Positions 12,953 to 63,022 of a DNA stretch of 64,000 nt are shown in pieces. Origin of the DNA: Desulfuromonadales bacterium (GTDB lineage Bacteria; Desulfobacterota; Desulfuromonadia; Desulfuromonadales; SZUA-540). The position numbers were made by a program, and so were the translations under genes. Each line of letters starts with the position of its first letter. Positions within the stretch are counted from its first letter, which is position 1. Where the stretch lies: the NCBI GenBank assembly GCA_033549025.1, contig JAWSUS010000002.1, forward strand, positions 224,001 to 288,000. Reading direction: 5' to 3'. The notes beneath the pieces were generated by a model. The model was not told the origin of the DNA. It saw nothing but the letters and a program-made list of their open reading frames with translations, and ran no database searches.

Positions 12953-12974
12953 GGCGTACCTCCTTGAGCTGTTT

Positions 12975-12988
12975 TGTGCATATGCACA
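12975..12988. promoter_or_regulatory. Perfect 14-bp palindrome, candidate operator of the NifX-DUF134 operon
   Basis: TGTGCATATGCACA about 22 bp upstream of the first start codon. Confidence 0.6.
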
Positions 12989-13320
12989 TTTAAACCGAGT
13001 CGCCATGATTGTCAACAGCTTTTTCACCTGGATTAGTGTATTTTTGATTAAAAGAATTGCTGCACTTTATACCGTGCTTTAACGTTCGAGGGAATCCTCT
13101 TCGAAAAAACCTATCGCCCGACCCCAAAAAAGACCCTGCCGCATAGACTTATTCTTCCCTATTACTTTTTTTACATAGGTTTTTTCGATAGGTGACATCG
13201 GCTGATGCCTCTGCTTTCTCTTGACGAACAATACCTTTCATGTCAGGATGTGCCGTCGCTCACATTCCATATCACTGCGGGCCTGGCCCGACCTGTCTCA
13301 TTGACGAAAGGAGTATCCTC

Positions 13321-16272: not shown

Positions 16273-18198
16273 TTACTGGCACTGATGCGGATAGGGGACG
16301 TTATCCACAAACTGGCTGGCTTCGGGATCACAGGGACCGACCAGGTTCCGCTCGGGGCGGCTGAACGTGTGGCAGAAACTGCAGTCCATGCCGGGGCCTT
16401 TGCTGATATGGCCATGCATCCGCTCATGATTGCTCGGCAGGTTCTTCTCACGGTGGCACTGGCTGCAGATCTGCGCCTTGGGCCCCTTGAGCTGGTACCC
16501 CAGCGTGTCGAGCTTGCTGTCGACCTCGATCCCCCAGGCGCCGCTTTCATGACATTTGGCGCAGGAAACGGAGGTGGCCGGCGCCACGCCATGATTGATC
16601 AGCTGGTAGGTATCGGTGGTCACCCATTCGTAGGGCGTGGTGGCCGCATAGCCCTGATTCTGCAGGCCGCTTTCAATGGCCTCGATAACATCGCCGGTCG
16701 TCCCCAGATACACGAGGGTGTCGAGGGCAATGAGCTTGCGGTCGGCGGAGACCATCGGCTGATCGGCCGTCTTGTACTTGAAGGGATAGAGTTTGCCGTC
16801 ATGGATGTCTCCCAGCGGCCGGGAGGTCGGATAGGCGTTGGTCGTCGGATCCATCACGGCCACATCACCCAGCAGGTAGTTGTCCGAGAGCCTGTTCCAG
16901 AACCGGAGCTCCGGAACCAGGTTGGCAGCCTTCTCGAGATGGGGATGTCCGGGCCCGGTGAGTCCATCCGCCGGGCTGCCGTCATGGTGGAAGCGCCAAT
17001 CACGGTGGAGCTCGGTCTCGACCTTGGCATAGACATCCACGTGACAGGCCTGGCAGGACACCCGGGACACATGGCGGTCGGGCTCGTTGCGATTGCCGCT
17101 GGAGGCGTGGCCACTGCCGCTGTCCATCCCCGGATGGCATTCGGCCGTCGAACACTTGACCTCGGCGGCGAAATCCGTCACGCGCAGATCCGACCCTTTG
17201 CCCGTCACCTTGTGATCGATGAACTTATGGCAGCTCTGGCAGCTCAGGTTGGGCCCGAGCACGTTCATGTGCACATCGAAATTGGCGTCGTTGTTGGCGA
17301 TGGTGGCCATGGAGAGATCCCCGCGCTTGACCGCGTCGCCGCCCCCGGCATTGGCGTGACAGACCAGGCAGTTCTTGCGGGTCGGCTTGCCCAGGTTGCG
17401 CACAAAGCCGTCCAGGGTCGCCTGGGGCGTCTCTTCAGGCGGGGCCAGGGAACCATCGGCCAGCCGGGTGCGCACGGCCGCGTAATCCTCATTATGGCAC
17501 ATGAGGCAGTCGATATTCTCCGTTCCTACGCCGGCCGTATCGGGACGCATGCCGCGGCCAACGTGGCACTTCCCGCAGATTTTCCAGTCGCCGAGGATAT
17601 TGATACAGTAACTGTTCACCGAGTTGGTCAGTTTGCCCTGGGGGGTTCCGGGCTGGTTCACCATGTCAGGGGCCGCGCCAACCCACTGGTAGTGCACCGA
17701 ACCGAACATGCCACTGGCCTGGCTGCTGTGGCAGGAAAGGCAGTTGGCCGGGTAGTCGGACCAGGCCAGATTGGCGTGCGTTCCCCCGCCCGTGGCACAG
17801 GCGGGATCTTCGGCGTCGATCAGGCCGTTGCAGTTGTCATCGATGCCGTTGTCACACACTTCGGACGAACCAGGATTGACCCCGGCCAGAGCATCGTTAC
17901 AGTCGGCCTGAGGGTAGGTGCAGCTGGCGTCGGCCGGAAAACCGTACCCGTCGCCGTCGCTGTCCGTACAGGTCGAATCGGCGCAACCTTCGTCGACTAC
18001 ACCGTCGCAGTTGTTGTCAACGCCATCAAAACAGATTTCCGCCGCGCCGGGATAGCTGAGCGGATCGCTGTCATTGCAATCGACATTGCTCCTGTAGCCG
18101 TCGCCATCGTCGTCCACAGGCTTTCCGGCCAGGACTCCGGTGGCGCCCATACTCAGCACCAGGCAGACAAAAGCCAGCATCAACATGAGTTTCTTCAT
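16273..18198 (-). CDS. Multiheme cytochrome c (octaheme tetrathionate reductase-like core plus 2 extra hemes) with N-terminal Asp/Cys-rich metal-binding repeats
   Basis: Signal peptide; 9 CxxCH plus 1 CX4CH; GGGDAVKRGDL, DVHM, YPFK, INHGVAP; two DxDGDG...DC...PG..E.C.G.DxNCxG..D repeats. Confidence 0.85.
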   Translation of the reverse strand: MKKLMLMLAFVCLVLSMGATGVLAGKPVDDDGDGYRSNVDCNDSDPLSYPGAAEICFDGVDNNCDGVVDEGCADSTCTDSDGDGYGFPADASCTYPQADCNDALAGVNPGSSEVCDNGIDDNCNGLIDAEDPACATGGGTHANLAWSDYPANCLSCHSSQASGMFGSVHYQWVGAAPDMVNQPGTPQGKLTNSVNSYCINILGDWKICGKCHVGRGMRPDTAGVGTENIDCLMCHNEDYAAVRTRLADGSLAPPEETPQATLDGFVRNLGKPTRKNCLVCHANAGGGDAVKRGDLSMATIANNDANFDVHMNVLGPNLSCQSCHKFIDHKVTGKGSDLRVTDFAAEVKCSTAECHPGMDSGSGHASSGNRNEPDRHVSRVSCQACHVDVYAKVETELHRDWRFHHDGSPADGLTGPGHPHLEKAANLVPELRFWNRLSDNYLLGDVAVMDPTTNAYPTSRPLGDIHDGKLYPFKYKTADQPMVSADRKLIALDTLVYLGTTGDVIEAIESGLQNQGYAATTPYEWVTTDTYQLINHGVAPATSVSCAKCHESGAWGIEVDSKLDTLGYQLKGPKAQICSQCHREKNLPSNHERMHGHISKGPGMDCSFCHTFSRPERNLVGPCDPEASQFVDNVPYPHQCQ

Positions 18199-52424: not shown

Positions 52425-53783
52425 ATGACGACCTTCATCAAACCCAACCTGGAGCAGAGCATCGACTCTCGACAGGATCTCGTCGCCTACCTTTCCCGCG
52501 GTGCCAAGCCGCGGGAGAGCTGGGGCATCGGCGCCGAAATGGAAAAACTGGTGGTCGACGCCGAAACGGGCCAGGCCGCTTCCTATGACCGTATCAGGGC
52601 CCTGCTTGAATCGCTGCTGGCTGACGGCTCCTGGGTCGGCATTTACGAAGGTCCCCATCTCATCGCCCTGAAAGACGCCTCCTCCTCGGTGACCCTGGAG
52701 CCAGGCGGCCAGCTGGAACTCTCCGGCGCCCTCTGTGCGGACATCCATTGCTGCCAGCAGGGATTTTCCCGTCATATCGACGGCATCATCGGCGCCGGAC
52801 GCACCCTCGGGCTGCGTTTTCTCGGTCTGGGCGTACAGCCCTTCAGTCGCCTGGAAGAGATCGGCTGGGTTCCCAAGGCCCGCTACGATATCATGGGGCC
52901 CTACATGCAGCGCACGGGCGACATGGGGCCGCGCATGATGAAGCAGAGCGCCGGCCTGCAGGTCAACCTCGACTACAGCAGTGAGGCGGACTGTTTCCGC
53001 AAACTGCGTCTGGCCTTTCAGCTCTCCCCGCTCTTCTACGCCCTCTTCGCCAATTCCCCCCTTATGGACGGCAGGCCCAGCGGCTTCCTCTCCACCCGGG
53101 GCGAAATCTGGGCGCGCACCGATGCCGACCGCAGCGGCCTGGTCCCCCGCCTGCTCCTGCCGGGAGCCACCTTCGAGGACTACGCCGACTACGCCCTCGA
53201 GGTACCGATGTATTTCATCATTCGCGATGGGAAGTATGTCGATTTCACCCGGGAGCGCTTCAGCTTTCGTCGTTATCTCGAGGAAGGCTTCGGTCTCCAT
53301 CGTGCCACCCTGGGCGACTGGGATCTGCATCTCTCCACCCTCTTTCCCGAGGCGCGCCTGCGCCCGCAAATCGAGATCCGCACCGCCGACAGCCTTCCTT
53401 CCCGGACGACCCTGGCGGTGGCCGCCCTGGTCAAAGGGCTCTTTTACGATGACCAGGCCTTCGCTGACAGCCAGGCCCTCTTCGACAGGGTGGATTTCGA
53501 CACCCTTACCTCTGCCTACCGCCAGTCCTGGCGTCTCGGGCTGCAGACCCCCTTCGGCGCCGGCACCCTGCAGACCCTGGCCCGCGACATTCTGGCTATT
53601 GCCCGCGACAGCCTACAGCGACAAAAAGCTCTTGATGAAAGCGGTCAGGATGAAACCCTCTACCTGCGGGAAATCGACGAAATCGCCCTTACGGGCAAAA
53701 CCCTGGCCGAGCGCCTGCTCGCGCGCTGGCAGGGCTCTCCTGCCGACAAGCTGCACGCCCTCTATGACCATTGCGGCTTCTGA
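52425..53783 (+). CDS. gshA: Glutamate--cysteine ligase (GCS2 / plant-like type)
   Basis: IGAEMEK, TLEPGGQLELSG, LQVNLD, ALFANSP, HLSTLFPEARL, IEIR. Confidence 0.92.
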   Translation: MTTFIKPNLEQSIDSRQDLVAYLSRGAKPRESWGIGAEMEKLVVDAETGQAASYDRIRALLESLLADGSWVGIYEGPHLIALKDASSSVTLEPGGQLELSGALCADIHCCQQGFSRHIDGIIGAGRTLGLRFLGLGVQPFSRLEEIGWVPKARYDIMGPYMQRTGDMGPRMMKQSAGLQVNLDYSSEADCFRKLRLAFQLSPLFYALFANSPLMDGRPSGFLSTRGEIWARTDADRSGLVPRLLLPGATFEDYADYALEVPMYFIIRDGKYVDFTRERFSFRRYLEEGFGLHRATLGDWDLHLSTLFPEARLRPQIEIRTADSLPSRTTLAVAALVKGLFYDDQAFADSQALFDRVDFDTLTSAYRQSWRLGLQTPFGAGTLQTLARDILAIARDSLQRQKALDESGQDETLYLREIDEIALTGKTLAERLLARWQGSPADKLHALYDHCGF

Positions 53784-53888
53784 CCCGGCCGCCCGACTGT
53801 CCAAGTGCACAGTCCGCTCCTGTTTCCCTGCAAGCCCATCTTTACGCATCGACACGTAGGCATCCCTGGTTAGAAGGGATAGAGTCAG

Positions 53889-54010
53889 AACCATCAAAGG
53901 CTTGTTGTGGCAGGCGAGCCGGCGATACAAACCTCCTTTCGTTACCTCTGTTGGTTATCGGGCCGGTCAAAAGGGATGCCTCCCCCACTTGACCGGCCCG
54001 AAATCTTTTC
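53889..54010 (+). ncRNA. Putative sRNA copy 1
   Basis: -10 TAGAGT at 53880; 5' hairpin; ACCTCCTTTC at 53931; 13-bp terminator stem plus TCTTTTC. Confidence 0.65.
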
Positions 54011-54128
54011 AGCTCCACCTGCGGCGATCGCCCCGACTGCGCAAAAGCACAGTTCACCAGCGTGGCTTCTTGTCCCAAGGTTTACGCAATGGCACGTGGA
54101 AAAGCGTGACGCCACCCGGTATAGTCAT

Positions 54129-54250
54129 AACCATCAAAGGCTTGTTGTGGCAGGCGAGCTGGCGATACAAACCTCCTTTCGTTATCTCTGTTGGTTATCG
54201 GGCCGGTCAAAAGGGATGCCTCCCCCACTTGACCGGCCCGAAATCTTTTC
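54129..54250 (+). ncRNA. Putative sRNA copy 2
   Basis: -10 TATAGT at 54120; nearly identical to copy 1. Confidence 0.65.
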
Positions 54251-54369
54251 AGCCGCCCTCGCGGCGCTTCCCCCCCACTGCACAAAAGCACAGTTCAGCT
54301 GCGTGGCTCCTTATCCCAAGGTTTACGCAATGGCACGTGGAAAAGCGTGACGCCACCCGGTATAGTCAT

Positions 54370-54488
54370 AACCATCAAAGGCTTGTTGTGGCAGGCGAGC
54401 TGGCGATAACTTCTTCATTGAAAACCTCCCGAACGCTCAAGGCCGAATGCAGGGATGCCTCCCCCTGAATTCGGCCTTGCGTCTTTTC
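54370..54488 (+). ncRNA. Putative sRNA copy 3 (diverged 3' half)
   Basis: -10 TATAGT at 54361; same 5' part; AAACCTCC retained; different terminator stem with the same GGGATGCCTCCCC loop. Confidence 0.62.
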
Positions 54489-54594: not shown

Positions 54595-54860
54595 GTCAAT
54601 CACCCCTGACTGAAGTCAGAGGCTTGTAACAACAAGTCTGGATTGACCAGGCACAGCCACCAGCGAGAGGTCGCTGACGGGGCTACGTTGGAAACGAAAT
54701 AGGCACCTGGAATGCCCTCCCAGTTCCAGGCTCTGCGGTAGCCGGTTAAAAGACGTTCAGGGTAAAGCGTCAGTGCCGTCTACGTTAAACCGTTTCACAA
54801 CCTTGCCGAGGGAGACTTTACCGCCGCAAGGCGAGAAAGCCGGGATAACCCGGTACTTAA
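54595..54860 (+). ncRNA. omegaRNA (HEARO-type) scaffold
   Basis: GTCAA...TTGACCAG, CTACGTT, ATAGGCACC, ATGC..CCCAGT..CTCTGCGG, TTGCCGAGG blocks directly upstream of iscB; 3' boundary approximate. Confidence 0.85.
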
Positions 54861-56229
54861 AAGGTACAACGATGCAGAGAGTCTTTGTACTCGACAATAC
54901 CAAACAACCCCTTTCCCCTTGCTCGCCGGCACGGGCCAGAATGCTCCTGCGAAACGGAAAGGCGGCGGTGTATCGCCGCTACCCGTTCACTATTATTTTG
55001 AAGCACCGCACCGGCGGGGATGTGCAATCGGTCGAACTCAAGCTCGATCCGGGCGGCAAGACCACCGGTGTTGCCCTGGTAGGCAACCACGACTCCGCCA
55101 ATACCGTTCTCTGGTGCGCGGAAGTGCACCACCGAGGCGCAGCCATCAAAAAAGCCCTCGAAAGCCGTCGGGCGATCCGGCGTTCACGGCGTCATCGCAA
55201 GACCCGCTACCGTGCGCCCCGGTTCGATAACCGGACTCGGCCACAAGGCTGGTTGCCACCGTCACTGCAGTCCAGAGTCAACAACGTCCTGACGCTGGCA
55301 AAGCGGCTGCAACGACTCTGCCCGATCACCAGCGTTGCGGTCGAAACGGTGAGGTTTGATTTGCAGAAAGCCGAGAACCCGGAGATTAGTGGCGTGGAAT
55401 ACCAGCAAGGGACGCTATTTGGTTACGAGGTTCGCGAGTATCTGTTGGAAAAATGGCAACGGCGTTGTGCTTATTGTGGGGACGAGAATGTGCCGCTGGA
55501 GATCGAGCATGTCGTTCCCAGAAGCAAAGGTGGCTCCAACCGGATCAGTAATCTTACCCTGTCGTGTCGGGACTGCAACGAACGCAAAGGCAATCGGCCC
55601 GTGCAGGAATTTCTGGCTGACTGGCCGGAACAGCTCCAAAAGATCCTTGGTCAATTAAAGCGACCGCTCAATGATTCCGCTGCCGTCAACGCCACCCGCT
55701 ACGCCATCGGCCATGCGGTTAAAACGCTGGGGCTACCCGTCTCTTTCTGGTCTGGCGGTCGGACCAAGTACAACCGCACTGGGCTGCACTATCCCAAGGC
55801 CCACTGGATTGACGCGGCATGTGTGGGTGAGTCTGGAGATACCGTGCGATTGAAACCCGACCAGGCCCCTTTATCCATCACCGCCACGGGACGGGGCAGC
55901 CGTCAGATGTGCCGTATGGATCGCTTCGGCTTCCCCCGCACCAGCGCCAAGAGTGCTCGCTTCGTGCAGGGGTTTCGCACAGGTGACCAGGTTAAAGCCG
56001 TCGTTCCCTCCGGCAAAAGAGCCGGTCTGCACTTGGGCCGTGTCGCCGTTAGAACCAGCGGCAGATTCAATATCGCGACGGCCTCCGGAACGATCCAGGG
56101 CATATCTTACCGGCACTGCCGGATCGTGCATCAGGCTGACGGCTACACCTATCAACCAAAGCCTTCCGTCTCACGACGGATCGCAATTCCTCCCCCGGTT
56201 GAAACCGGAGGTCTCCTTGTGAGGTTTCT
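54595..56229 (+). mobile_element. Non-autonomous IS200/IS605-superfamily element carrying omegaRNA and iscB (no tnpA)
   Basis: Begins GTCAATCACCCC with hairpin TGAC-TGAA-GTCA; ends with TTCCTCCC-CCGGT-TGAA-ACCGG-AGGTCTCC hairpin; lower GC than neighbours by eye. Confidence 0.88.
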
Positions 56230-58338: not shown

Positions 58339-58926
58339 ATGGATGAAGGTACGGAAAAAATTCTCCTCGAGCAGATACGCCAGGGCAATGATCGCGCTTT
58401 TGAACAGCTGGTTCAGGGCCATGCCGCGCAGATACTGTCCCTGGCCACCCGTCTCATCGGTGACCGCGACGAGGCCGAGGATATTGCCCAGGAAGCCTTC
58501 CTGCGATTGCACCGCTCGCTGGGAACCTTTCGCGGCGACAGCAAAATATCGACCTGGCTCTACCGCACCGTCAGCCGCCTGGCCATCGACCACCTGCGAA
58601 GGGAGCAGAGGCGACGGAAGCTGTTCTTTTTCCGTAAAAGCGACGACGAAGAGCAGCCCGATCCGGTTGAAAGCGCCGCGGCACCCGATCCTTCGCCACG
58701 GGAGGCGCTGCTGGCGCAAGAGACGCAGCGACGCCTCAACACCGTGCTGAAAAAACTCTCGCCCCGTCAGCGGGCCGTCTTCATCCTGCGTCACCAGGAG
58801 GAGCTGCCGCTGAAGGAGATTGCCCGGATACTTGAATTGGAAGAGGGAACGGTCAAGGCCCATCTGCACCGCGCCGTCACCGTCCTGCGCCACGAACTGC
58901 ACGATCTGAAGGAAGGTTCGCCATGA
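58339..58926 (+). CDS. ECF sigma-70 factor
   Basis: AEDIAQEAF, STWLYR, LSPRQRAVF, GTVKAHLHRA. Confidence 0.93.
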   Translation: MDEGTEKILLEQIRQGNDRAFEQLVQGHAAQILSLATRLIGDRDEAEDIAQEAFLRLHRSLGTFRGDSKISTWLYRTVSRLAIDHLRREQRRRKLFFFRKSDDEEQPDPVESAAAPDPSPREALLAQETQRRLNTVLKKLSPRQRAVFILRHQEELPLKEIARILELEEGTVKAHLHRAVTVLRHELHDLKEGSP

Positions 58927-59393
58927 CCAGAGACGACACAGGGCGCTGCCCGGAAGAGGAACTCACCCTCTATTATTATGGGGAGCTGGAACCGGCCGAG
59001 CGCGGCGCCATCGACAAACACCTGGAAGGCTGTGCCGCCTGTCGCCAGCAGCTGGCCGCCCTGGAACCGCTGCTTGGCGCGCTGCCGAAGCCGGTCATCG
59101 AACTGAGTACCGAAGAAAAACAACGCTTCAGCGCCCAGGTCATGGAATGCCTCGACCGGCGGCAAAAGCGGCGCTTTTTACCCCTCTTCGGCGGCGGCCT
59201 CGCCACGGCGGCGGCCGTGCTCCTGCTCCTGCTCAATACCGGCTCGCCCCCCGATTTGGCCCCACCGGCCGGCAGCAACGGCCTGGTCGCCGAATTGGAG
59301 GGACTGCCGGAGATGGAGCTTCTGCGCAACCTGGAGATTCTGGAGGAATTCGAGCTGCTGCAGGAACTGGGGGACATGAATGACCATGCCTGA
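58923..59393 (+). CDS. Zinc-finger (zf-HC2) anti-sigma factor
   Basis: HLEGCAAC, single TM, coupled to the sigma gene. Confidence 0.88.
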   Translation: MTRDDTGRCPEEELTLYYYGELEPAERGAIDKHLEGCAACRQQLAALEPLLGALPKPVIELSTEEKQRFSAQVMECLDRRQKRRFLPLFGGGLATAAAVLLLLLNTGSPPDLAPPAGSNGLVAELEGLPEMELLRNLEILEEFELLQELGDMNDHA

Positions 59394-59607
59394 ACGGACG
59401 CTCACTTTTCTTCTGCTGCTGGCGTCCCTGCTGCTCTTCCCCGGCGCCTTGCCGGCGGCAGAGACCGTTACCAGAGATAAAAAGCCGGCCGAGGAAGAAC
59501 CTCTGAACGCTACGGATCGTGATATCGTCGAGATGCTTGAGCTACTGCAAATGCTCGAACTGCTACAGAATATGGAAGTGCTGGCCATGGTGGAGGAGAG
59601 CGAATGA
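59380..59607 (+). CDS. Small exported hypothetical protein
   Basis: Signal peptide, acidic EMLELL repeats; overlaps both neighbours. Confidence 0.65.
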   Translation: MTMPERTLTFLLLLASLLLFPGALPAAETVTRDKKPAEEEPLNATDRDIVEMLELLQMLELLQNMEVLAMVEESE

Positions 59608-60122
59608 AACGTATAGGAATGGCCCTTTTGCTGCTGATGGCTATGCTTGGGCTGGCCGGGCCGGTTCTGGCCGACTCGCCGCCCCCGGCGGCCGCACCGA
59701 CCACCGAGCGCCAGCAGGCCCTGGAGCGCTGGCAGAATCTTTCGGACGCCGAACGCCAGCAACTGCGCGAACGTTACCAGCAGTTTCAGGCTCTGCCCGC
59801 CGAGGAGCAGGAGCTGCTGCGCCAGCGTCTGCAACAGTTCCGTCAGGCGCCGCCCGAAAAAAAGCAGCTGCTGCGCGAACGCTTTCAGCGCTGGCAGCAG
59901 CTCTCCGCCGAGCAGCGTGAGCAGCTGCGCGCCACCTACCAGCGGTTCCAGTCGCTGCCCTCCGAAGAGCGCCAGCAGCTGCGGCAGGAGATGGAGGAAT
60001 TGCGCTCCCTGCCCACCAATCAGCGCCCGCAGCGCCGACAGGAAATCCGCCAGCGCTACTTCGGTAGCCCGGCGATACGCTCCGGCGGCGGCTCCCGCCA
60101 TAACGGCGGCATGCACCGATGA
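59604..60122 (+). CDS. DUF3106-like periplasmic helical repeat protein
   Basis: Signal peptide, about 5 repeats of (W/F)QxL(S/P)xE(E/Q)RQQLR. Confidence 0.8.
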   Translation: MKRIGMALLLLMAMLGLAGPVLADSPPPAAAPTTERQQALERWQNLSDAERQQLRERYQQFQALPAEEQELLRQRLQQFRQAPPEKKQLLRERFQRWQQLSAEQREQLRATYQRFQSLPSEERQQLRQEMEELRSLPTNQRPQRRQEIRQRYFGSPAIRSGGGSRHNGGMHR

Positions 60123-61206: not shown

Positions 61207-61809
61207 ATGAGTCCGCTGACGCCGAAGCAGAAACAGATATTCGACTACATCCGCAGCCACCTCGACCAGCACGGCTACGCCCCCACCCAACAGGAAATCG
61301 CCCGCGCCTTCGGCTTCTCGTCTCTGGGCACGGTGCAGAACTACCTCAGGCGCCTGGAACGGGACGGCTATCTGGCCCGCGACTGGAACGCCCGCCGCGG
61401 CGCCCGCCCCCTGGCCCAGCGGCGCGACAGCTGGGAACTCCCTCTCGCCGGCTGGGTGGCCGCCGGCAAGCCCATCGAGGCGGTGGAACAGCAGGAGAGT
61501 ATTGAGGTGCCCCCAGCCATGCTCGGCCCCGGTGAACATTTCGTCCTGCGCGTCAAGGGGGATTCCATGATCGGCGACGGCATCCTCGACGGCGATTACG
61601 TCATCGTGCGCAAGCAGACCGAGGCCGTCAGCGGCCAGACCGTCGTCGCCCTCATCGACAACGAGGCGACGGTCAAGCGCCTCTACCGCAAGGGAACCGC
61701 CATCGAACTGCACCCGGCCAACCCGGCCATGGCTCCCATCCCGGTCGACCCCACGGACGATTTTCGCCTCGAAGGGGTGGTGGTCGGCGTCATCCGCCAC
61801 TGCGCCTGA
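61207..61809 (+). CDS. lexA: LexA repressor
   Basis: LTPKQ..IF wHTH, VAAG cleavage site, GDSM, ATVK. Confidence 0.95.
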   Translation: MSPLTPKQKQIFDYIRSHLDQHGYAPTQQEIARAFGFSSLGTVQNYLRRLERDGYLARDWNARRGARPLAQRRDSWELPLAGWVAAGKPIEAVEQQESIEVPPAMLGPGEHFVLRVKGDSMIGDGILDGDYVIVRKQTEAVSGQTVVALIDNEATVKRLYRKGTAIELHPANPAMAPIPVDPTDDFRLEGVVVGVIRHCA

Positions 61810-61837
61810 AGACCGGGGCCGACTTCGCCCCGCCAAT

Positions 61838-63022
61838 ATGTCCCGCGATATCCTGCACCTGCATATTCCCGACTTTGCCGTCGCCGTCGCCCGTGTCATC
61901 GACCCGGCGCTGCGGCAACGCCCCGTCGCTCTCGCCCCCGGCGCCTCGGAGCGCGCCTTGCTGCAATGCGTCTCCGCCGAGGGACGCGCCGAAGGCCTCG
62001 CCCCCGGCATGGCCGTCCGGATGGCCAGACGGCTGTGCCCGCGTCTCATCCTCATCCCGCCCGACCCGGCCGCCCTGTTCCGGGCCGAGGCGGCCCTCTG
62101 CCGCCTCGGCGCCGAGGTCTCCCCGCTTATCGAACCGGAAGTGGCCGGCCGCCTCTACCTCGACATCTCAGGGAGCGGCCGCCTGCTCGGGCCCGGCCGC
62201 GATGTCGCTGCCCGTCTGGAAGGGGAAATCGACCGGCAGCTGCGCCTGAGCGGGGCCGTTGGCCTGGCCGGCAACAAGCTGGTGGCCCGTATCGCCGCCG
62301 GCTATCTGGAACGTCCCGGCGTCTGCGACGTCCTGCGCGGCAGCGAGGCGCCCTTCATCAGCTCCCTGCCCGTCAGTGTTCTGCCCGGCGTGGGACAGGC
62401 CCGCGCCACCCTGCTGCTGCGCGAACTCGACCTGCGCCGCGTGGGGGATTTGGCTGAGCTTTCCCTGGACGAGCTGCGCCTGCTCTTCGGCGGCTTCGCC
62501 CCTCTGCTGCGCCAGCGCGCCTGCGGCATCGACCCCTCGCCGGTGAGCCCGCCGGCCCGGACGCCGGAGATCAGAGAGCAGGCCTTTCTGCCCCAGGCCG
62601 ACAACAACGACGAAGCCCTGCTCGCCGCTCTCGCCCGTCTGGTGGAACGCTGCGCCTATCGTCTGCGTCAGCGCGGGCAAGGGGCCGGCGTCCTGGTGCT
62701 GACCCTCTATTACGAGGACGGCGTCACCGCCCGCCGCAGCCGCCGCCTGCCCAACCCTGCCGCCGCCGACAGCGTCCTCATGGAAGCGGCGGAAGCCCTC
62801 TTCTACGCCACCAGCCAGCGTCGCGTGCGTCTCAAGGGGATGCGCCTGGCCTGCCGGGAGCTGGGTACGGCCCGGCAGCTCGACCTTTTCGCGCCGGCCG
62901 GCGGAGAGCCTTCACGGCAGGAAAGCACCTTACTGCAGGCCCTCGACCAGCTGCGCCAGCGCCACGGCGTGGACGTCGTCCGGCGCGGCCGCACACTGCT
63001 CGCTCCCCACCTGGAGGGCTGA
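61838..63022 (+). CDS. imuB: Y-family polymerase homologue lacking catalytic acids (ImuB-like)
   Basis: ILHLHIPDF and AGRLYLD in place of HxDMDAF and SIDEAYLD; QLDLF clamp-binding motif; lies between lexA and dnaE2. Confidence 0.8.
   Translation: MSRDILHLHIPDFAVAVARVIDPALRQRPVALAPGASERALLQCVSAEGRAEGLAPGMAVRMARRLCPRLILIPPDPAALFRAEAALCRLGAEVSPLIEPEVAGRLYLDISGSGRLLGPGRDVAARLEGEIDRQLRLSGAVGLAGNKLVARIAAGYLERPGVCDVLRGSEAPFISSLPVSVLPGVGQARATLLLRELDLRRVGDLAELSLDELRLLFGGFAPLLRQRACGIDPSPVSPPARTPEIREQAFLPQADNNDEALLAALARLVERCAYRLRQRGQGAGVLVLTLYYEDGVTARRSRRLPNPAAADSVLMEAAEALFYATSQRRVRLKGMRLACRELGTARQLDLFAPAGGEPSRQESTLLQALDQLRQRHGVDVVRRGRTLLAPHLEG

Follow-up and report, generated by a model that had tools for sequence, protein, structure and literature searches.

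How dozens of unrelated, scattered multiheme cytochrome genes are co-ordinated in metal-reducing bacteria is, to our knowledge, an open question. It is raised here by a triplicated intergenic cassette in a Desulfuromonadales genome, lying in a stretch of 64,000 nucleotides that was analysed as a whole (hereafter the window). What do the three units encode, on what could they act, and under which signal? We think it fairly probable that they specify sibling small RNAs, activated by a regulator, which pair with the codons of the CxxCH heme-binding motif and lower multiheme cytochrome mRNAs as a class. The features on which the argument draws are as follows.

52425..53783, plus strand: gshA-like glutamate-cysteine ligase gene, conserved upstream neighbour of the array
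53796..53813, unstranded: copy 1 operator 1, palindrome of consensus CTGTGCA-WW-TGCACAG, centre near -85; likely NarL-type regulator site
53841..53857, plus strand: copy 1 operator 2, TTTACG-N6-CACGT, centre near -41, at the -35 region
53880..53885, plus strand: copy 1 -10 hexamer TAGAGT
53890..54010, plus strand: copy 1 predicted sRNA body, start placed from the -10 box
53899..53920, plus strand: copy 1 5' hairpin, 7-bp covarying stem, loop UGUGGCAG at 53906-53913
53931..53940, plus strand: copy 1 anti-Shine-Dalgarno linker ACCUCCUUUC, predicted single-stranded
53958..54009, plus strand: copy 1 terminator hairpin, CCUCC-bearing loop and U tract
54036..54053, unstranded: copy 2 operator 1
54081..54097, plus strand: copy 2 operator 2
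54120..54125, plus strand: copy 2 -10 hexamer TATAGT
54130..54250, plus strand: copy 2 predicted sRNA body, loop 54146-54153, anti-Shine-Dalgarno element 54171-54180, terminator 54198-54249
54277..54294, unstranded: copy 3 operator 1
54322..54338, plus strand: copy 3 operator 2
54361..54366, plus strand: copy 3 -10 hexamer TATAGT
54371..54488, plus strand: copy 3 predicted sRNA body, loop 54387-54394, linker 54410-54429, terminator 54438-54487
54595..56229, plus strand: IscB element, HEARO RNA 54595-54821, IscB ORF from 54872
16273..18198, minus strand: nine-heme cytochrome gene, an example of a predicted target within the window

The layout is largely as the sequence-only reading of this locus had described it: three units with a 240/241-bp period between the gshA-like gene (best model TIGR01436, 405 bits, below its cut-off of 463) and the IscB element, each with a -10 hexamer (at 53880, 54120 and 54361) and with a 5' block close to invariant across the three. 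The ACCTCCTTTC motif reported for copies 1-2 is present, copy 3 having AAACCTCC instead, and the arms of the copy-3 terminator diverge, with GGGATGCCTCCCC and TCTTTTCAG nevertheless retained. A promoter scan recovers the -10 boxes of copies 2 and 3 (2 sites vs 0.4 expected). Two points had to be amended. One operator per unit was claimed and there are two, each 240-bp unit comprising two operators, a -10 box and a structured RNA body of ~120 nt with its terminator. The terminator "loop" does bear CCUCC, but its GGG/CCC is predicted to be paired and only AUGCCUCC is left open.

The array is not an artefact of assembly, an objection that the same reading had anticipated, because two genomes of the same genus, one of them assembled as a single contig, have an array of two copies at this site, and the junction found only in the middle copy is matched over 187 nt, with zero mismatches, by a 193-nt contig from the metatranscriptome run X1. 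This middle copy is a chimera, with a promoter of copy-3 type and a body of copy-1 type, which likely arose through unequal crossover. A fourth copy lies on another contig of the genome (G000:C13:56211-56418). Parts of the stretch are present, promoters as well as bodies, in four metatranscriptome runs as contigs only, from which depth, ends and strand cannot be read. The HEARO-IscB element sits just before tkt and is missing in the two same-genus genomes and in the X1 contigs; this empty site fixes both ends of the insertion, and hence IscB is a late arrival unrelated to the array. Elsewhere in the window, positions 61207-63022 hold lexA followed by a DNA polymerase IV/ImuB-like gene, likely an SOS mutagenesis cassette, and at positions 58339-60122, as judged from the list of open reading frames, an ECF-sigma-like gene precedes an anti-sigma-like gene and two genes for small exported proteins.

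Several observations indicate that the units specify structured RNAs. Folding z-scores against shuffles are -3.5, -4.5 and -2.7 for copies 1, 2 and 3. The loop UGUGGCAG is the most conserved stretch of the family alignment, identical in 40/40 aligned RNAs, and around it the stem of the 5' hairpin shows two-sided changes at four of its seven pairs. The terminator stem does so at eight of nine, giving 12 of 16 for both stems, which none of 500 shuffles reaches, and stem pairing stands at 95% vs 26-51% in slid controls. Selection on RNA structure, proposed earlier from the altered stem of copy 3, is supported by covarying stems across the family. Among 120 distinct cassettes collected with a promoter profile, a set biased towards loop-bearing loci, we counted 110 exact loops in 61 different stems, 88 of them with all seven pairs. 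Two loops in separate stems occur within one cassette in 7/120, and tandem double UGUGGCAG hairpins, each with its own stem, were seen in L037, L061, L082, L099, L113, L114 and L115. A competing fold register, which is the predicted fold for copy 2 taken alone, would hide half of the loop; it is 92.9% pairable and has zero covariation. Pyrimidines dominate the linker, which varies between RNAs; CCUCC is found there and again in the terminator loop. A promoter-only search of the order gave 119 places, of which 111 were kept (-10 box, CCUCC and full body) and 8 dropped. Going by sequence, a -10 box, two operators and a hairpin with U tract stand together in intergenic DNA at 111 of the 119 promoter-pattern places. 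No ORF is conserved across the family, as had been claimed, and the conserved small toxin ORF, overlapping or adjacent, that marks the antitoxins of type I toxin-antitoxin systems was not found. Together, these features support the predicted sibling non-coding RNAs of ~120 nt on the plus strand.

With what would such RNAs pair? The anti-Shine-Dalgarno element had been put forward as the main feature, and one could imagine a family of generic anti-Shine-Dalgarno sibling sRNAs in which CCUCC does the work, the loop binding a protein or one other target and its likeness to heme codons being chance or a relic of descent from a cytochrome gene. We consider this unlikely: the invariant part is the 5' loop, and it matches heme codons within coding sequences. 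The complement of UGUGGCAG is C-UGC-CAC-A, i.e., the Cys-His codons that close the CxxCH motif. The loop itself, as U-GUG-GCA-G, places the anticodons for His and Cys one after the other. Since G residues of the loop stand opposite both wobble positions, all four Cys-His codon pairs can pair with it. Loop variants were seen in L163, L237 and L326: GGUGGCAG and CGUGGCAG leave the anticodon core intact and fit other frequent contexts of the motif, and one variant, UUUGGCAG, disrupts the core.

The match to heme codons was first spotted by eye and the tests are post hoc, yet they are exhaustive over seeds. They rest on 3,030 genes called by script in this genome, 43 with at least two CxxCH and 2,932 with none. 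The exact complement CTGCCACA is the top enriched 8-mer in the multiheme vs the heme-free genes (37 sites vs 32 in a 56-fold larger heme-free sequence). Once G-U pairs are allowed, no 8-mer seed among 65,536 outranks the loop for multiheme cytochrome coding sequences, and the 10-mer GUUGUGGCAG ranks 1 of 1,048,576. At ten consecutive positions no other base would pair with more of the motifs; at the next two this no longer holds. Windows slid along the RNA show cytochrome enrichment only over the loop. These three results speak against the generic anti-Shine-Dalgarno family, in which a relic would decay. The rarer loop variants GGUGUGGCAG and GCUGUGGCAG rank 41 and 497. In none of nine other motif classes does the loop rank better than 639, and none of them yields an equally discriminating seed. 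In an annotation-free test of clumping over 50,751 8-mers, a register shifted by one base ranks 1 and the loop itself 64.

At the level of genes, the loop pairs at 8/8 positions with 155 of the 275 CxxCH motifs, in 42 of the 43 multiheme genes (G-U allowed). Three or more sites per gene are found in 27/43 multiheme vs 3/2,932 heme-free genes; if sites are filtered at -12 kcal/mol, 27 genes have at least three, and 25 of these are multiheme. The nine-heme cytochrome gene of the window has nine CxxCH sites, with predicted duplexes of -11.6 to -22.8 kcal/mol, accessibility being ignored. In a replicate on family f18 (13 multiheme ORFs, five genomes), 48/79 motifs pair, and the loop ranks 4 and the shifted register 1, against the background of the present genome. 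In favor of a generic anti-Shine-Dalgarno role, heme-free genes show no avoidance of sites: the exact site is seen 31 times vs 21.8 expected and the wobble set 360 times vs 418 expected, and a loop site is present in 346/2,932 of these genes.

The CCUCC elements deserve attention in their own right. They are predicted to be unpaired, as had been claimed, they occur in all 111 kept cassettes, and they are retained in all families, loop-less cassettes included, which is what one would expect if CCUCC did the work. The anti-Shine-Dalgarno linker is the variable region of the RNA, at odds with its proposed place as the main functional part, and has no preference for the start regions of multiheme genes (2-3 of 43 in the top 5%). 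This indifference suggests that the anti-Shine-Dalgarno module likely acts on other mRNAs. The copy-3 linker (54410-54429) is antisense to GGAGG-N7-AUG-AAG-AAG and shows only a slight bias for signal-peptide genes (p 1.5e-4 in a rank test, p 0.13 in a test on the top 5%). An anti-Met-Lys-Lys role, with CUUCUUCAU pairing to signal-peptide starts, was dropped and kept only as a weak lead: the exact start is rare (3/450 signal-peptide-like genes vs 5/2,430 others), and the full motif occurs in 11/111 RNAs.

A likeness to sibling sRNAs with CCUCC loops in other bacteria had been drawn from the sequence; for the cuckoo RNAs it holds for the terminator loop and fails for the first loop. According to the available text of PMC8034643, the Cuckoo, CcsR and NfeR RNAs of Alphaproteobacteria form tandem sibling copies with a CCUCC anti-Shine-Dalgarno motif in a hairpin loop, and Cuckoo/CcsR members are defined by CCUCCUCCC in every hairpin loop, with an adjacent DUF1127 gene in the CIN1 subgroup. 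The array resembles them in its tandem sibling copies with CCUCC. Unlike Cuckoo/CcsR, its RNAs carry this motif, as far as hairpin loops go, in the terminator only, the first loop being UGUGGCAG throughout; unlike in Cuckoo, each copy has its own promoter, the host belongs to another phylum, and Rfam gives no match. A DUF1127 neighbour was not found at the window locus, where the neighbours are the gshA-like gene and IscB/tkt.

How far does the family extend? No named family had been recognised in the sequence-only reading, and an Rfam scan agrees, with zero match at the gathering score (the best weak match is a microRNA hairpin, E 0.14; the rest are HEARO, chance hairpins and, in a flank only, an FMN riboswitch). 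BLAST finds matches in 40/61 relatives at E 0.1 or better, weak ones counted. The covariance search proposed earlier succeeds within the order but not beyond it: a model built from 40 RNAs matches 63/76 genomes of the order, 1-8 times per genome, and in the sister orders of the class only 3/75 genomes have matches, all weak and without loop, hairpin and promoter. Ten weak matches in other phylum genomes (150 searched), without hairpin and promoter, were rejected as non-members. In a pattern scan of named genomes we found at least 121 loci. Operator 1 is where expected in 60/126 among the matches listed, including Geoalkalibacter, Desulfuromonas, Trichloromonas, Geopsychrobacter, Malonomonas and similar; the 66 others among those listed are mostly chance matches in other phyla, with some divergent true members. 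In at least 11 families, arrays of 1-4 copies are flanked by gshA and tkt, the loci compared having mostly been fetched because they bear a cassette. In G102 a cassette promoter after gshA is truncated by the contig end (L341, G102:C4:1-65), which is why this genome is scored as lacking the RNA.

The distribution of the loop within the order follows heme content at one point. We counted CxxCH-coding DNA in 151 genomes against a reversed control. The nine CxxCH-poorest of the 76 genomes of the order (eight f5, one f10) have zero loop-bearing matches; of the other 67, 62 have a match to the model, the loop being checked in part of these matches. The loop core GUGGCAG is found in 0/17 f5 cassettes vs 72/94 elsewhere. 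Since the f5 cassettes retain promoter, anti-Shine-Dalgarno element, terminator and even tandem arrays, only the loop is missing there, in all 17, which counts against a role carried by CCUCC alone. Three of the 8 dropped promoter places are in f5, all loop-less. The 22/94 loop-less paralogues outside f5 point the other way, towards CCUCC; the loop is present in 1/7 cassettes of f2 and 0/2 of f4. Family f5 is one lineage and hence counts as one event. Quick RpoB trees place it nested among loop-bearing groups, with a support of 84 only, and a basal position is compatible with an AU test (p 0.385); the tree thus suggests a loss of the loop in f5, short of being decisive. Among the RpoB matches, that of L445 (G065) is split in two inside one long open frame by an insertion, and that of L430 (G041) has one internal stop. 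Where the heme loop would stand, several f5 RNAs (L231, L221, L349, L352) share a different conserved 5' motif, GAACGGUUGG, and the cassettes L233 and L234 are entirely without the 5' hairpin. Family f5 may, at a guess, be the Pelobacter carbinolicus type of lineage. P. carbinolicus is described, in the available text of PMC3543383, as having lost ancestral multiheme cytochromes. In the 75 sister-order genomes, mostly richer in CxxCH DNA, no family member was found.

The operators point to a regulator. Operators 1 and 2 keep an almost fixed spacing across 42 instances, and the best other operator-1 site in the genome precedes an operon of a HAMP/HisKA_3 kinase and a response regulator, at G000:C10:58605-59351, whose nearest solved relatives are VraR and NarL. 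Operator 1 is upstream of the kinase start in 32/32 distinct loci, at 33-35 bp in 31 and at 40 bp in one. The regulator is present once per genome in 75/76 genomes of the order and in 0/75 of other orders, so its range is that of the RNA, the same order. In five f20 genomes the RNA gene stands head to head with the kinase-regulator operon, in a position where both could use one palindrome. Regulator and cassette are both missing from G012, which branches basally in the tree. In G072, which is cytochrome-rich and assembled in a single contig, no cassette was found, and a kinase match is missing in the 5-kb stretch around a regulator remnant (L400, G072:C1:2973834-2974130; residues 147-227 only, with stops); this genome seems to have lost the regulator-RNA system. 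From position and co-occurrence, operator 1 is likely the binding site of the NarL-type regulator. The periplasmic part of the kinase resembles four-helix-bundle sensors (score 0.91, a lead only), and its homologues carry generic names only. Comparison by eye with consensus sequences led us to drop a reading of the operators as LexA, sigma-54 or CRP/Fnr sites. Six further intergenic operator-1-like sites (window 12973-12990; G000:C17:11455; C3:55921; C32:4809; C25:27813; C13:79555), with scores of 13.8-18.6, could form a wider regulon. Their contexts are between NifB/NifX-family and rhodanese/Fe-S operons, inside a multiheme cytochrome cluster, before an exported-protein gene, between rpoH and crcB, beside an nlpE-like gene and ahead of a chemoreceptor gene.

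How could these parts work together? The order-wide NarL-type two-component system would switch on the sibling sRNAs, activation being suggested by the operator positions. The invariant loop would then start pairing at several Cys-His codon sites per mRNA, probably assisted by Hfq, whose gene is encoded in the genome. Many sites per mRNA may confer selectivity for the class, and members with two loops could add avidity. RNase E cleavage inside the coding sequence might follow and lead to mRNA decay, by analogy with MicC-ompD, where seed pairing within the coding region results in such cleavage (PMC11347162 and PMC3469820, in their available text). MicC-ompD involves one site in one mRNA; the array RNA would target a repeated codon pair of a protein motif throughout a gene class. 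The anti-Shine-Dalgarno linker and the terminator loop would form a second, separable module, likely blocking ribosome binding on other mRNAs.

The direction of the effect could be different. The loop might pair with heme codons without causing decay, protecting multiheme mRNAs or slowing ribosomes and thus pacing export and heme attachment. Complementarity and co-loss are silent on direction, and genomes with many cytochromes tend, if anything, to have more copies (outside f5/f10 its relation to CxxCH density is weak, rho 0.19, p 0.12). Yet the same RNA bears anti-Shine-Dalgarno elements, which usually repress, and the MicC precedent is one of cleavage after pairing within a coding sequence; we therefore regard pairing without decay as rather improbable.

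A sponge of the CsrB/RsmY kind, titrating CsrA or another RNA-binding protein through repeated loops under a two-component system, would share the layout of the array: a palindromic upstream site, a two-component activator, several copies, some of them with repeated loops. A CsrA-like gene is found in the genome (by pattern match only). In GacA-RsmY/Z and LuxO-Qrr1-5 a two-component output is routed through several sibling sRNA genes with a common upstream activator site. The array RNAs differ from both systems in lacking GGA arrays, in their regulator site and in having no sequence match. The many loop GGA motifs typical of CsrB, RsmY and RsmZ are not there (0 or 1 GGA in 96/111 bodies), the loop contains GGC instead of GGA, and the Rfam Csr/Rsm models are unmatched, which makes this explanation very improbable. 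That the units are no sRNA genes at all is scarcely credible: copy 3 does show GGAGG-N7-ATG and a 31-codon frame on its minus strand, but a minus-strand peptide gene is rejected by 66 distinct loop cassettes, of which 33 are without a GGAGG-N7-ATG-type start, the others splitting over three frames (14/11/8) and each frame being stopped in 24-52; a MITE, also envisaged earlier, or a REP element is contradicted by the absence of inverted repeats at the unit ends, the conserved gshA-tkt position in at least 11 families and the four copies in this genome; and a plasmid search gave no match, a viral search gave four matches, all without the cassette, and arrays recur in single-contig genomes, which speaks against an assembly artefact.

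The preferred reading, of regulator-activated sRNAs pairing with heme codons, differs from known cases of cytochrome control. RyhB is Fur-controlled. In Shewanella oneidensis it is an Hfq-dependent sRNA that lowers the c-type cytochrome mRNAs cctA, scyA and nrfA, and CXXCH goes unmentioned in the available text of that source (PMC5826389). RyhB acts on gene-specific regions; the predicted site of the array RNA is the shared heme motif, and its control is likely by an activating two-component system. The array RNAs are unmatched by the RyhB and PrrF models of Rfam and, unlike these iron-sparing sRNAs, have an operator 1 that tracks the kinase-regulator operon. Closer parallels to the targeting come from eukaryotes. 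Plant miRNAs target the codons of NBS-LRR motifs (PMC5026261, available text), and miR-23/181/188/199 target C2H2 zinc-finger coding regions (as cited in the available text of PMC5159803). In these cases, too, regulation of a gene family by a small RNA rests on the codons that encode a conserved protein motif, and wobble positions matter. The miRNAs work through the eukaryotic Argonaute pathway on paralogous families, whereas the array loop would address unrelated proteins that share a cofactor motif, with wobble absorbed by G-U pairs.

In the open-access literature searched, subscription papers and preprint supplements lying outside it, neither this RNA family nor a bacterial sRNA directed at CxxCH codons was found. 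Supplements on multicopy sequences of P. carbinolicus left three family motifs unmatched, a fourth matching only an unrelated repeat, and gaps in their PDF alignments could hide a match. We conclude that the sRNA family, with its likely regulator, is new, and that the case for targeting of a cofactor motif is strong as a prediction from sequence.

For the Desulfuromonadales, our analysis offers a model made up of a single kinase-regulator pair, the operator that goes with it and an RNA seed whose sites are predicted. It seems to us rather probable that these define a regulon by cofactor, in which a wobble-proof His-Cys anticodon loop and one two-component signal set the multiheme cytochrome load. 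If true, bacteria would provide an example of targeting by way of protein-motif codons, for which the open-access literature searched gave parallels only among eukaryotic miRNAs. It could also provide a tool, a single RNA to dial down cytochrome content in electroactive strains. Along with its cytochrome load, this order, whose members reduce metals and sulfur, would have its extracellular electron transfer set by the same signal.
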